From the NCBI GenBank assembly GCA_905236775.1, contig CAJOOM010000175.1:1-63245 (forward strand): 63,245 nucleotides of DNA. Reading direction: 5' to 3'. Both the position numbers and the translations under genes were made by a program. This DNA comes from Candidatus Gastranaerophilales bacterium. GTDB taxonomy: Bacteria > Cyanobacteriota > Vampirovibrionia > Gastranaerophilales > Gastranaerophilaceae. Within the stretch, counting starts at the first letter, position 1; the number at the start of each line of letters is the position of its first letter. Shown piece by piece: positions 11,494 to 55,855 of the stretch. Under the pieces are notes generated by a model, which saw only the letters and a list, made by a program, of their open reading frames with translations, did not search any database and was not told the origin of the DNA.

Positions 11494-12723
11494 ATGAAAA
11501 AAATTGTAAGGCAGCAAAACTATTTAAAACAACTTATTGAATCTCAGGAGAATCAAATTATATCTAAATCAGCACTAAATTGTATGATTAGAGCTGCTTT
11601 AGAACCTTTGGTGAGTAATCCGGAAGATGGAGTTGTTTTGCATAGGATTGAGAATAAGTCTTTTATTTCCGGCTTACTAAAGAGACTTGAATTTTCATCA
11701 ATACCTGCTTACGATTACACTGATGACAGTGAAAATTTGATTGAAAAAGTTTGGGCAAATACTGAATTTTTATGTGTACTTACTCACAGATTTGTAGCAA
11801 TAATCGTTTGGGACAGCAAAACGGATAATAAAAACTTTGTCAGATACTATACTGTCTATAATTCAAAACTTCAAAATGAAGTGTTGGAAATAATTAACAG
11901 GAATAGCAGCATCAATATTAAAGAATTTCAAGAACGGTTTAAGCCGGACAGACGTGACAACCCGCTATTAAATCGTTCAATAAGAACTCTTATAGAAAAT
12001 ATGGACGAAGTAACTAAAGATGCGGTTATTGGTTTTGCACAAGTTGAGACACAAAAGAAAGAGGAAGAAGTCAGCCAAAACACCAGAATGATAGCTCACG
12101 AAATTAGGAACCAGCTTTCAATTTGTGATTTGTATACTGAAATCATAAGAAAAGCTTGTGCAAAAGGCGGTATAAAGGACGATAATGTGTCTAATGCCTT
12201 GAAAAATATGACAAGAGCTATTAAAATGGCAGGGAATTCTTTAATTTCACTTAAATCTACAGAAAAAGCAGTAATTAAACCTTGTAAGTTAAAAGAATTA
12301 ATATCATATGTGGCAGATTTGACAAAGGTATACTACGAAGGTAAAAATATTGAATTTTTGTTGGAAAATGAAGTAAATGTAAAAATTCCGGTAGATGAAA
12401 ACCGATTTAATGCAGCAATAATCAATCTTGTAAAAAATGCAAGTGAAGCTTTTAATCTTGATGACAACAAAGAAGGTAAATTTATAAGAATCAAGACAGA
12501 AGAAGATGGTGATTTTGTATTAATCAGAATTTCCAATAATGCAGGCAAAATAGATGAACCGCAAAACATATTCAAAGATGGTTATACAACAAAATCTTCC
12601 GGAAATGGACTTGGTTTAATAATTTGTAAAAAATCTATTGGAGAAATGTATGGCAAACTTGAACTTGAGGTAAATACAGATGAAGAAGTCGAGTTTGTGG
12701 TTAAAATAAGTAGTATTAAATAA
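11494..12723 (+). CDS. Cytoplasmic sensor histidine kinase
   Basis: H-box AHEIRNQL, N-box NLVKNA, G2 GNGLGL; no TM helix. Confidence 0.85.
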   Translation: MKKIVRQQNYLKQLIESQENQIISKSALNCMIRAALEPLVSNPEDGVVLHRIENKSFISGLLKRLEFSSIPAYDYTDDSENLIEKVWANTEFLCVLTHRFVAIIVWDSKTDNKNFVRYYTVYNSKLQNEVLEIINRNSSINIKEFQERFKPDRRDNPLLNRSIRTLIENMDEVTKDAVIGFAQVETQKKEEEVSQNTRMIAHEIRNQLSICDLYTEIIRKACAKGGIKDDNVSNALKNMTRAIKMAGNSLISLKSTEKAVIKPCKLKELISYVADLTKVYYEGKNIEFLLENEVNVKIPVDENRFNAAIINLVKNASEAFNLDDNKEGKFIRIKTEEDGDFVLIRISNNAGKIDEPQNIFKDGYTTKSSGNGLGLIICKKSIGEMYGKLELEVNTDEEVEFVVKISSIK

Positions 12724-12735
12724 AAAGGAGGTAAC

Positions 12736-12822
12736 GTGAATTAGTTAATAAGAGCAAAGTTAATAAGTTAATAAGATTTTAAAATCACTTATTTACTTAT
12801 TCACTTATTCACTTATTCACTT
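12736..12822 (+). repeat. Octamer-repeat hairpin cassette between SD and ATG of flgB
   Basis: (GTTAATAA)n arm and (CTTATTCA)n arm; near-identical copy at 50051-50134 on the minus strand. Confidence 0.85.
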
Positions 12823-12829
12823 TTATTAT

Positions 12830-13312
12830 ATGGACTTAATAACAAACAGAACAATGAATATCACTAAGCTTGCGATGGACGGTTTAATTGACCGCCAGCA
12901 TGCTATTGCTTCAAATATTGCAAACGTTATGACACCCGGATTTCAAAGAAAAGAAGTTGCTTTTGAAAGCCAACTTGCTGAAATTCAAGAAAAAGCAGAC
13001 TTAAAAGATTATATAAAAGGGCAAAACAGCATTGAGTATAAACCTCCTGTTTTGGATGTGTTTACTGGTGAAATTCATAAATACAGAATCCCGACTCTTC
13101 AAGAAAAGGCTTATTTAAAGTCAAATATCTATGATCAATTCAAGCCTCAATTGGTTACAGATATATATAGCGGAACAGACCATCACGGAAATAATGTTGA
13201 ATTAGAACGTGAAATGATGGATTTGTCAAAAACCGGTACAAAATATATGGTACTTTCTAATCTAGAAAGAAGAAACTTCACAGGACTAAGCGAAGTAATC
13301 AGAGGACAGTAA
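12830..13312 (+). CDS. flgB: Flagellar basal-body rod protein FlgB
   Basis: IASNIANVMTPGF; GNNVELEREM. Confidence 0.9.
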   Translation: MDLITNRTMNITKLAMDGLIDRQHAIASNIANVMTPGFQRKEVAFESQLAEIQEKADLKDYIKGQNSIEYKPPVLDVFTGEIHKYRIPTLQEKAYLKSNIYDQFKPQLVTDIYSGTDHHGNNVELEREMMDLSKTGTKYMVLSNLERRNFTGLSEVIRGQ

Positions 13313-13372
13313 TAAAGTGACGAGGTTACGAAGTGAAGCCACTAAATCACTTAAAAAAGATGCGGAGGAAAT

Positions 13373-18187: not shown

Positions 18188-18213
18188 CTTATATAAAAAA
18201 TTCCCTTTTTTAC

Positions 18214-18370
18214 TAAACGGAGTTACTTGTTTAACTTCGTAAAGTCTTATTTACCCCTCCTTTTTCAATAAACGGAGGCACTTGGCAAAGCTTCGTCTTG
18301 TTACATTTACCCCTCTTTTTTCAATAAACGGAGGCACTTGGCGAGGCTTCGTAAAGTCTTATTTGCCCCT
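18214..18370. repeat. Three tandem 55/56-bp family A units
   Basis: Units start TAAACGGAG at 18214, 18269 and 18325. Confidence 0.9.
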
Positions 18371-19120
18371 TTATTTTACAAAAAAGCTTGCATTAATATT
18401 TGCATAAACCTTAATTACTCCGCTTGAAATTGATGTAGACTGAGGAGCGCCTTCTGCGCTATCAGCGGTAGCAGCAAGCATATTTTTTGCCATATAAAAT
18501 CTTGGAGTAGAATAGTTTGACTGTTCAGTGCAGCTTATATCCATAGATCTTATTCCGTCAAGGTTTCCGCCTACACCTTTAGCAGCAATACTTGCTCTGG
18601 TATTAGCTTTTTTTGTTGCAATTTCTATTAATGAATTGCATTGTGATTCATAATTTGATACTGAAAAATTAAGTGAATCAATATTAGTAGCCCCAGCTTC
18701 CGTTGCTTTATCTATCATTGAACCGAGTTTGTCAAGAGATTTTGTATGTACGGTTACTCTATTTGAAACTTCGTACTTATCAAGTGTTCTTTTATTTCCG
18801 TTGTAATTGTATAATGGTGTAGCATTATAATTCGATGTCTTTATATAATCACCGTTTGCTGTATTAATTTGTTCATTTAAAATATTGTATATCTTTTCTG
18901 AAATATCCTTATTCATAAGAGATGCTTTTTGCATTGATTTATTATCATATGTTTTTACAGCAAAAGAAAGTTCTGCCGTATCAGGAGCAATTTCTGTATT
19001 CGCTGTTGTTGAGATTGATATATAACCTCTTTCCTTATCATTTGTTTGTGCAGCTTTTGCTGTTAGCATGCCACCTGCTATAATTGATAATACTGCAATT
19101 AGTGCTACTGTTTTTTTCAT
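18371..19120 (-). CDS. SIMPL/DUF541 domain periplasmic protein
   Basis: Signal peptide; PDTAELSF, AGATNIDSLNF. Confidence 0.85.
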   Translation of the reverse strand: MKKTVALIAVLSIIAGGMLTAKAAQTNDKERGYISISTTANTEIAPDTAELSFAVKTYDNKSMQKASLMNKDISEKIYNILNEQINTANGDYIKTSNYNATPLYNYNGNKRTLDKYEVSNRVTVHTKSLDKLGSMIDKATEAGATNIDSLNFSVSNYESQCNSLIEIATKKANTRASIAAKGVGGNLDGIRSMDISCTEQSNYSTPRFYMAKNMLAATADSAEGAPQSTSISSGVIKVYANINASFFVK

Positions 19121-48724: not shown

Positions 48725-50044
48725 TTATTTTCTCATTGTTTTTCTATACCAATAATGTATTGCTCTTGCTACTCGATTAGATGAATGTCTTACCAACCCT
48801 TGTTTATTTTCTTGAATAAGTTTTTGAGAAACTACTTCAACTCCGATTGGTGCTATATTTTCCATATCCAAACGAACAGGAATAGAGCCGGATTCAGCAT
48901 AACCTTTTGAAATATTATCCGGAAGAGCATTGTTTACAAGCACTGCGTCTATAATTTTTTTACCTTTTGCATGCTTTAATAGAGCATTAATATGGCTTGC
49001 AACAGTATAATCAGTTGTTTCTCCCGGTTGAGTCATAATATTACATACATATATTTTCTTAGCTTTTGATTTTTCTATTTCTTCTGCTATACCAACGACA
49101 AGAAGATTCGGTATAACACTTGTATATAGACTTCCCGGGCCAAGAATAATCAAATCAGCCTCTTTTATAGCATTCAAAGATTCCTCAAGAGCTTTACAAT
49201 TTGCAGGCTCTGTGAAAAGTTGTTTTATTTGCCCATGTGCTTCCGGTATATTAGACTCACCATGTATAATTCTTCCATCTTCAAATTGTGCACCAAGTTT
49301 CATATCATCTAATGTAGCAGGAAGAACCACACCTCTTATATTAAGTACTTTTGAAGATTCTTTTATAGCTTTTACCATATTTCCGGTAATAGCACATAAA
49401 GCTGTTAAAAATAAATTCCCAAAACTATGACCTTCAAGTCCTTCGCCGGTTTTGAATCTGTATTGAAAAAGTTCGGTAATTAAATCTTCATCATCGCCAA
49501 GGGCAGCAATACAGTTTCTTATATCACCTGGAGGCAAGATTCCCATTTCATTTCTTAATCTTCCCGAACTTCCGCCATCATCACCGACCGTTACAATTGC
49601 GGTTATGTTACTTGTATATTTTTTGATTCCCCTGAGCAGCATTGATAATCCTGTTCCACCGCCTATAGCAACGACTTTTGCGCCTTTGTTAAGTTTTCTT
49701 CTTCTATATAATTTTTCTAAAAGAGATGAATTTCCTTGAGCAGAATTCATATCCATAATTGATAAGGTTGTTTTTTGCCAACCTTTAAAAAATATAACAG
49801 AACCGATTAATATGAATATCGCAGCAAGAAAATTAGATGGCAAAATTAATGCGGCTTTTCTTATTAATTCAAGAGTCAAGTAAATAGGTCTTACGTTAGC
49901 CAGAACCATAAAGCCAAGAACTATCATGATTGAACCTAAAAATATCAAAGCAAACCAACGTTTTACTTCTAATCCCGGAATAAGCCAGCCAACTTCCTTT
50001 TTTACATTAACGTTTTCTTTTATTTCATCTATATTAAATGTCAT
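48725..50044 (-). CDS. yvcK: YvcK/CofD-like gluconeogenesis factor with N-terminal TM region
   Basis: GGGTGL, DDGGSSG, PPGDIRN, GHSFGN, GPGSLYTS. Confidence 0.9.
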   Translation of the reverse strand: MTFNIDEIKENVNVKKEVGWLIPGLEVKRWFALIFLGSIMIVLGFMVLANVRPIYLTLELIRKAALILPSNFLAAIFILIGSVIFFKGWQKTTLSIMDMNSAQGNSSLLEKLYRRRKLNKGAKVVAIGGGTGLSMLLRGIKKYTSNITAIVTVGDDGGSSGRLRNEMGILPPGDIRNCIAALGDDEDLITELFQYRFKTGEGLEGHSFGNLFLTALCAITGNMVKAIKESSKVLNIRGVVLPATLDDMKLGAQFEDGRIIHGESNIPEAHGQIKQLFTEPANCKALEESLNAIKEADLIILGPGSLYTSVIPNLLVVGIAEEIEKSKAKKIYVCNIMTQPGETTDYTVASHINALLKHAKGKKIIDAVLVNNALPDNISKGYAESGSIPVRLDMENIAPIGVEVVSQKLIQENKQGLVRHSSNRVARAIHYWYRKTMRK

Positions 50045-50050
50045 TTTCTT

Positions 50051-50134
50051 TAAGTGAATAAGTGAATAGGTGAATAAGTGAATAAGTGGTTTTAAAATTC
50101 TTATTAACTTATTAACTTTGCTCTTATTAACTTA
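50051..50134 (-). repeat. Octamer-repeat hairpin cassette between SD and ATG of yvcK
   Basis: 84 bp, TAAG...CTTA ends; second copy of the flgB cassette. Confidence 0.85.
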
Positions 50135-50230
50135 TCTCCTTTCTTTCTAAATTTTCAATTTTCCATTCTCTTAGTGCCTTGGTGCCATAGTATCTTAATC
50201 CCTTTACCCCTATTTACCCCCATTTTCAAT

Positions 50231-51683: not shown

Positions 51684-51832
51684 ATGCGAACTCACTCCGT
51701 TATTTATTATCCCTGTATATTTAAAGAATTTTTTTAATCAAAAATTGCTCATTTAAAAAATATTTGTTACAAATCTTAATCAATAAATTCGGCACTAAAA
51801 AGCGGAGGACGGTTCTATAAAAGGCACTAAAA

Positions 51833-51880
<48 letters not shown>

Positions 51881-55717: not shown

Positions 55718-55793
55718 AAAATGATTTTAGCATAAACAAGTTCTCCTCTAACTATCATAACTAGAGAAGAAGACTTTCTACTGCTTTAAAACC

Positions 55794-55855
55794 ACTTTCC
55801 ACTTTCCACTTTCAACTTTCCACTTTCAACTTTCCATTTTCCATTTCCCATTTTT
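55794..55855. repeat. Heptamer tandem repeat TTTCCAC/TTTCAAC/TTTCCAT
   Basis: Directly visible; preceded by ACTGCTTTAAA as at 2771. Confidence 0.9.

Follow-up and report, generated by a model that had tools for sequence, protein, structure and literature searches.

A repeat-built hairpin predicted between the Shine–Dalgarno sequence and start codon of flgB, and related inserts before other genes of a Gastranaerophilales bacterium

The flgB junction

The window analysed here is positions 1 to 63,245 of contig CAJOOM010000175.1 of Candidatus Gastranaerophilales bacterium assembly GCA_905236775.1 (G000). Within it a response regulator gene and a sensor histidine kinase gene (11494..12723, + strand) precede flgB-flgC-fliE, which begins at 12830 with flgB itself (12830..13312, +; TIGR01396 above cut-off). 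The TAA stop codon of the kinase gene (12721-12723) directly adjoins a Shine–Dalgarno (SD) sequence, AAAGGAGGT (12724..12732, +; core AGGAGG at 12726-12731), that forms a 9 bp duplex with the canonical anti-SD. No 16S gene was found in the host assembly or in three genomes of the same genus, and the anti-SD, which is canonical, was read from two order-level relatives (two of the five genomes searched). An SD as strong as this one is proximal to only 11 of 1623 genes in the host genome. The initial annotation placed AGGAGG 98 nt from the flgB ATG with no other SD between them, and the coordinates are confirmed; the best SD-like 9-mer in the spacer scores −2.1 kcal/mol. Two further ATGs in frame, at 12854 and 12875, were rejected as alternative starts, neither having an SD, and an internal promoter was likewise rejected, there being one sigma-70-like site against 2.6 expected, placed so that a transcript would begin after the ATG.

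The spacer consists largely of two arms of short tandem repeats. The left arm (12736..12775, +) contains AAGTTAAT-type units, with tandem 8-mers at 12739-12775, and is separated by an A/T-rich loop region (12776..12784, +) from a right arm (12785..12822, +) of 4.8 copies of TCACTTAT, in which pairing extends to 12820; a linker of 9 nt, predicted to be single-stranded (12821..12829, +), then leads to the start codon. The spacer is predicted to fold as one hairpin, in which GTGAAT/ATTCAC form the closing helix and 4+9 = 13 nt stay unpaired; its energy is −19.5 kcal/mol, with a z of −5.2 relative to 200 dinucleotide-shuffled sequences. The arms had been described as pairing with a periodic U-C mismatch, and the pairing stands, although the minimum free energy structure contains the U-C mismatch once and U-U twice. 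An unpaired spacing of either 13 or 7 nt had also been proposed; with the SD and start held open, the 13 nt form dominates (444 of 500 sampled structures) and the 7 nt form is minor (18 of 500). A spacing of 13 nt is greater than the 5-9 nt at which SD spacing peaks in this genome, where SDs are canonical. Opening the SD together with the start would require 9.2 kcal/mol, compared with a median of 5.2 and a 90th percentile of 9.6 among 200 ordinary genes, and in slipped registers of the hairpin the SD pairs with the right arm.

A GTG-AAT-TAG mini-ORF, which the annotation suggested the SD might serve, is present at 12736..12744 (+), its GTG doubling as the outer strand of the closing helix. 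A general role for it is unsupported, since only five of the 17 copies described below have a start codon 4-12 nt beyond the SD, the other 12 having no decoy start; moreover, the GTG strengthens the closing helix where it is present and is thus accounted for without a mini-ORF. A search of positions 12500-13000 against Rfam gave no matches with E-values up to 1, and the exact 22-mer spanning the SD and adjoining arm has no second occurrence in the genome-contig collection searched. At the flgB-flgC junction (13313-13372) there is also a related, degenerate repeat with AAGTGA / TCACTT units, which folds weakly (−6.8 kcal/mol) and lies 5′ of an intact GGAGG SD.

Related inserts in the host genome

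About 17 unrelated genes of the host genome have an SD 65-150 nt from the start codon, with a repeat-built insert between the two that is predicted to form a single hairpin. One of these is a second copy in the window (50045..50144, −), comprising an SD, a 91 nt hairpin spacer and 1+6 unpaired nucleotides before the ATG at 50044 of yvcK (48725..50044, −; TIGR01826 above cut-off). Placement of the copies genome-wide is not random: a search for paired arms gave 20 elements, all 20 of which end 5-53 nt before the start of an ORF. Nine of them end 5-8 nt before the ATG and have no SD after them, while 11 end 18-53 nt before the ATG and are followed by an SD, one of the latter being built from a different repeat unit. 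Selection by the right arm alone, located 2-14 nt ahead of an ATG, yielded 20 genes, two of which were set aside: in one the ATG was internal, and the other had an SD of its own. None of the 18 retained genes has a proximal SD. In the host genome overall, 761 of 1613 genes, about half, lack a proximal SD of −5 or lower. Upstream, 14 of the 18 have an SD of −7 kcal/mol or lower and three more have AAAGGA; recR has neither. At recR (G000 C61:1947, −; L073) the upstream stop and the ATG are separated by a 156 nt hairpin that is not accompanied by an SD, which makes the gene a candidate case of coupling over such a structure.

The targets are functionally mixed. Those above profile cut-offs are atpG, encoding the ATP synthase gamma subunit, asd, fliG, recR and yvcK; flhA, uppP and lpxC-like genes fall below them. 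When the 5′ foot of the hairpin is located by independent folding, an SD is found at it in 13 of the 18 arm-adjacent genes. The figure is one of 11 for elements with an intact SD after them (Fisher p 0.0017) and 68 of 750 for background windows; three of the controls gave no foot, and counting two of these as positive changes the comparison to 3/11 (p 0.027), both p values being overstated because copies and orthologues are related rather than independent. The sequence AGAAAGGAG is an ordinary SD in this genome, with 19 of its 30 occurrences proximal to a start. The split copies are all oriented alike, with GTT units following the SD; inversion would be expected to put GTG codons there. In 11 of the 17 copies the distance between an upstream stop and the SD is 4-29 nt. 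Leaderless starts were considered and rejected, a −10-like hexamer at 11-14 nt being present in none of the 17 copies and in 270 of 1623 background genes.

Folding with the SD and start held open bridges the two in a fraction of only 0.19-0.55 of structures at five loci, and the copies at C17:4209 and C93:10778 retain an unpaired spacing of at least 21 nt when folded. The helices are interrupted by mismatches every 6-7 bp.

Other repeats occur in the window and genome. The most over-represented 8-mer genome-wide is GGGTAAAT (509 occurrences versus 300 expected, z 12), found in tandem arrays of 10-12 nt and, in the window, at 2913-2971 and 50203-50225; a 56 nt unit ending in ATTTACCCCT is present in 3.2 copies at 18205-18385. 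The DUF559 genes at G000 C76:36280-36597 and C86:238-558 (L033 and L034) are flanked by inverted repeats CCCTCTCCC / GGGAGAGGG, and repeats similar to these precede atpG in several relatives.

Filled and empty alleles and the origin of the inserts

Empty sites in relatives were sought and were found at flgB, yvcK, asd, fliG and flhA. Sixty-six of 80 flgB junctions, measured from kinase stop to ATG, are no longer than 25 nt, and 22 of these 66 have no SD at or below −5, so that flgB may not need a strong one. The 14 longer junctions comprise nine with a proximal SD and five in which an upstream SD is combined with a hairpin. The best-scoring relative, L209 (93 %), is empty, and the interleaving of filled and empty flgB alleles on the tree points to several gains or losses. 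Small hairpins with spacers of 39-46 nt are present between the SD and flgB ATG in L268 and L272, just 5′ of position 1501; these belong to a distant branch of the genus and are apparently independent of the long inserts.

The yvcK insert is absent from all 27 relatives' loci examined. At asd the insert was found in none of 26 loci and then in one of 11 further genomes, and in the empty alleles the ATG is preceded at 4-7 nt by an SD of AAGGA type, a pattern that, as far as sequence comparison goes, fits insertion between the SD and the start. At fliG, filled alleles occur in 12 of the 16 genomes scored (one truncated locus was left out), with spacers of 53-100 nt in which GGAGG is kept in 12/12 while the arms and the length vary; the empty alleles have a weak SD inside the end of the upstream gene. 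Three of six flhA loci are filled, and the empty ones have an overlapping stop and start. By these comparisons the SD appears to have arrived with the insert at fliG, flhA, yvcK and the host flgB, and to be host-derived at asd.

The layout recurs in filled alleles generally. In 27 alleles from 12 related genomes, picked by eye as filled, the spacer is 37-104 nt long and in every case is predicted to form one helix, leaving 3-16 nt unpaired. The median across all 38 alleles is 9 nt unpaired, with no correlation with spacer length (rho −0.10), and the predicted folds have a 5′ linker of mostly 0-5 nt and a 3′ linker of mostly 4-11 nt. A held-out search of 15 relatives that used only the right arm and ATG gave 17 matches, 14 of them before long ORFs, and all 14 of the latter have an SD followed by a single helix with 4-16 nt unpaired. 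RNAalifold returned no consensus pairs for the 12 fliG alleles, the alignment slipping on repeat copy number.

A possible source of the arms is provided by one of the two PF05635 four-helix-bundle genes in the host genome. This gene, on C33, is flanked by flgB-type arms and is the sole gene-bearing copy of the flgB-type unit in G000; its neighbours are genes that we take to be groES and groEL, and the groEL SD follows the cassette. The left arm of the cassette matches flgB positions 12743-12776 at 33 of 34 nucleotides, and a 29-mer occurs six times in the host genome. The flgB insert has a loop of about 9 nt and no ORF in it, and from their sequences the flgB-type inserts look like cassette arms without the gene. 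All 17 PF05635 genes over the cut-off, found in 13 of 40 relatives, are flanked by inverted tandem arms as judged by eye, the units differing between genomes. PF05635 has no match in two genomes, G016 and G022, that nonetheless contain elements. A PF05635 gene is present at the groES-groEL junction in eight genomes (G000 C33:11134-11566, locus L031, and L074, L080-L084 and L089) with a different arm unit in each, which indicates that the arms are replaced more quickly than the gene changes location. In L086, an order-level relative, the right arm of the cassette appears by eye to continue in frame into the following gene and to supply its N-terminus. Arrays of the 7-mers TTTCCAT, TTCCACT, AAAATGG and CCACTTT are found in the window at 2631-2862, 51832-51880 and 55792-55853, and these units also flank the second four-helix-bundle gene (G000 C64:39214-39531).

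Copying of sequence between loci is evident from the 97 % identity of the spacers at atpG and yvcK and from the flgB insert, whose similarity to one paralogue (0.82) exceeds that to every orthologue (0.62 at most). The suggestion of a mobile cassette is to this extent borne out, as copying between unlinked loci is seen, although a mobilizing enzyme is not: the assembly, which is 93.7 % complete, contains no match to PF01797, the Y1 (RAYT) transposase. No target-site duplication was seen by eye at filled and empty loci, the relatives being too diverged to fix the ends. The simplest guess at the mode of spread is gene conversion from existing copies, and the repeated filling of the same genes could reflect either insertion hot spots or old insertions with loss and homogenization. 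REP/REPIN elements and MITEs are short, dispersed, imperfect palindromes of intergenic regions with filled and empty sites. The inserts share with them the dispersed imperfect palindrome and the filled and empty sites, but differ in having no Y1/RAYT match, no duplication visible by eye, arms of tandem 8-mers and a position that always adjoins a start codon.

Initiation across the insert

We consider it probable that the hairpin is looped out so that the displaced SD can position the AUG, forming a hairpin-bridged split ribosome-binding site. The proposal of such a site at flgB is supported as a layout and a predicted fold, and the use of the SD is inferred. A 30S subunit would pair with the displaced SD, the hairpin being accommodated 5′ of the E site by virtue of the short 5′ linker and the 3′ linker of 4-11 nt, and initiation would occur at the AUG past the hairpin, with a workable distance likely restored. 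Inserts would survive only where an SD sits at the foot, whether kept from the host (asd) or new (fliG, flhA, yvcK and the host flgB), and at operon junctions a ribosome finishing at the upstream stop may feed the split site. It is likely that copied inserts are tolerated in this way.

There is precedent in phage T4 genes 38 and 25, where a hairpin cuts the SD-AUG spacing from 22 to 5 and from 27 to 11 nt, respectively, according to the available part of PMC3014915. The likeness to those two genes, as they are presented there, lies in a hairpin that shortens the spacing, predicted here to change from 98 to 13 nt at flgB and to a median of 9 nt in the family; the hairpins described here differ in being 3-6 times longer, built of tandem repeats, situated before about 17 chromosomal genes and polymorphic between close relatives, and their fold is a prediction. 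That the ribosome is able to make room for a long hairpin without unfolding it is reported for E. coli thrS in the available section of PMC3936740, although the thrS hairpin lies, in that account, between the standby region and the SD rather than between SD and AUG.

The main rival is translational coupling only, in which terminating ribosomes slide or hop over the folded insert and reinitiate, the split site not being used by free 30S subunits. It would accord with the coupled junctions of the empty alleles (the flgB gaps of 25 nt or less and the flhA stop-start overlap), with the stop codons within 4-29 nt of the end of the SD in many copies and with recR, where the foot has a stop but lacks an SD. 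Against it, the stop is 59-134 nt before the SD at atpG, yvcK, C17:4209 and C181:13178, and the filled fliG alleles have gained a stronger SD than the empty ones possess. Coupling as the whole explanation therefore seems unlikely, but it may act together with the SD.

Initiation independent of the SD, with the U/C-rich right arm acting as an enhancer and the SD hitchhiking in copied DNA, is harder still to credit. Against it stand the invariance of GGAGG in the 12 fliG alleles with diverging arms, the use of AGAAAGGAG as an ordinary SD and the rarity of a 5′ SD among elements followed by their own. The proposal draws on the many host genes without a proximal SD, on the common SD-plus-arm start that several copies have, and on the enhancer role proposed for TAACTGA repeats before Beggiatoaceae start codons in the available text of PMC4679880. 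The repeats of those marine Beggiatoaceae resemble the inserts in being short tandem repeats of one orientation a few nucleotides before the starts of unrelated genes without a proximal SD; they are direct repeats, with one inverted set among 170, and neither a second arm nor a displaced SD is among the features described in that portion of the paper. From what is given there, they look like the right arm alone.

A regulated switch, in which slipped pairing or a protein (e.g. the four-helix-bundle protein) toggles the site between SD-sequestered and bridged states, or in which the GTG mini-ORF gates flgB, is similarly improbable. Alternative registers do pair the SD, two genomes' flgB loci, the C20:2443 copy and several fliG alleles have GTG-NNN-stop after the SD, and flagellar genes recur among the targets (flgB, fliG and flhA); however, the targets as a whole are mixed, presence is patchy among close relatives, most copies have no decoy start, and elements are found also in G016 and G022, where PF05635 has no match.

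The intervening sequences of 23S rRNA, as described in the accessible part of PMC4990558, consist of arms forming a long stem around an S23p/four-helix-bundle ORF (PF05635, TIGR02436), and the Coxiella intervening sequence has heptamer repeats in its 5′ arm and is excised by RNase III with fragmentation of the rRNA. The complementary arms of a PF05635-gene cassette are, on that description, common to the flgB insert, which differs in lying at an mRNA junction (kinase gene to flgB) and in being without the gene. Removal of the insert from the mRNA by cutting or splicing, for which the shared arms and the RNase III excision of the PF05635-bearing Coxiella element reported there are the grounds, is very hard to sustain, given that such removal fragments rRNA in that account and a cut without rejoining would part SD from AUG, that the helices are broken by frequent mismatches, and that there is no Rfam match.

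The open-access papers searched describe no repeat family that splits ribosome-binding sites and no repeat-armed four-helix-bundle cassettes outside rRNA. For the family as a whole we offer a wider proposal, somewhat tentatively: the inserts could be gene-less arms of four-helix-bundle cassettes that seek out start codons, bring or select an SD at their 5′ foot and neutralize themselves by folding into hairpins of 40-150 nt, in which case long split ribosome-binding sites would be routine for core genes of Gastranaerophilales (atpG, asd and flagellar genes), and the same might explain the TAACTGA arrays of Beggiatoaceae. Tandem-repeat arrays at start codons that have lacked an explanation would in this way be linked to a four-helix-bundle cassette. 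The natural series of fliG alleles (53-100 nt) makes the tolerance of the 30S subunit for the size of structure between SD and AUG directly testable. If the hairpin-bridged reading is correct, programs that predict ribosome-binding sites wrongly class genes with split sites as lacking an SD, and hairpin-bridged initiation, demonstrated so far for two small T4 hairpins, would extend to about 1 % of the genes of a bacterium.
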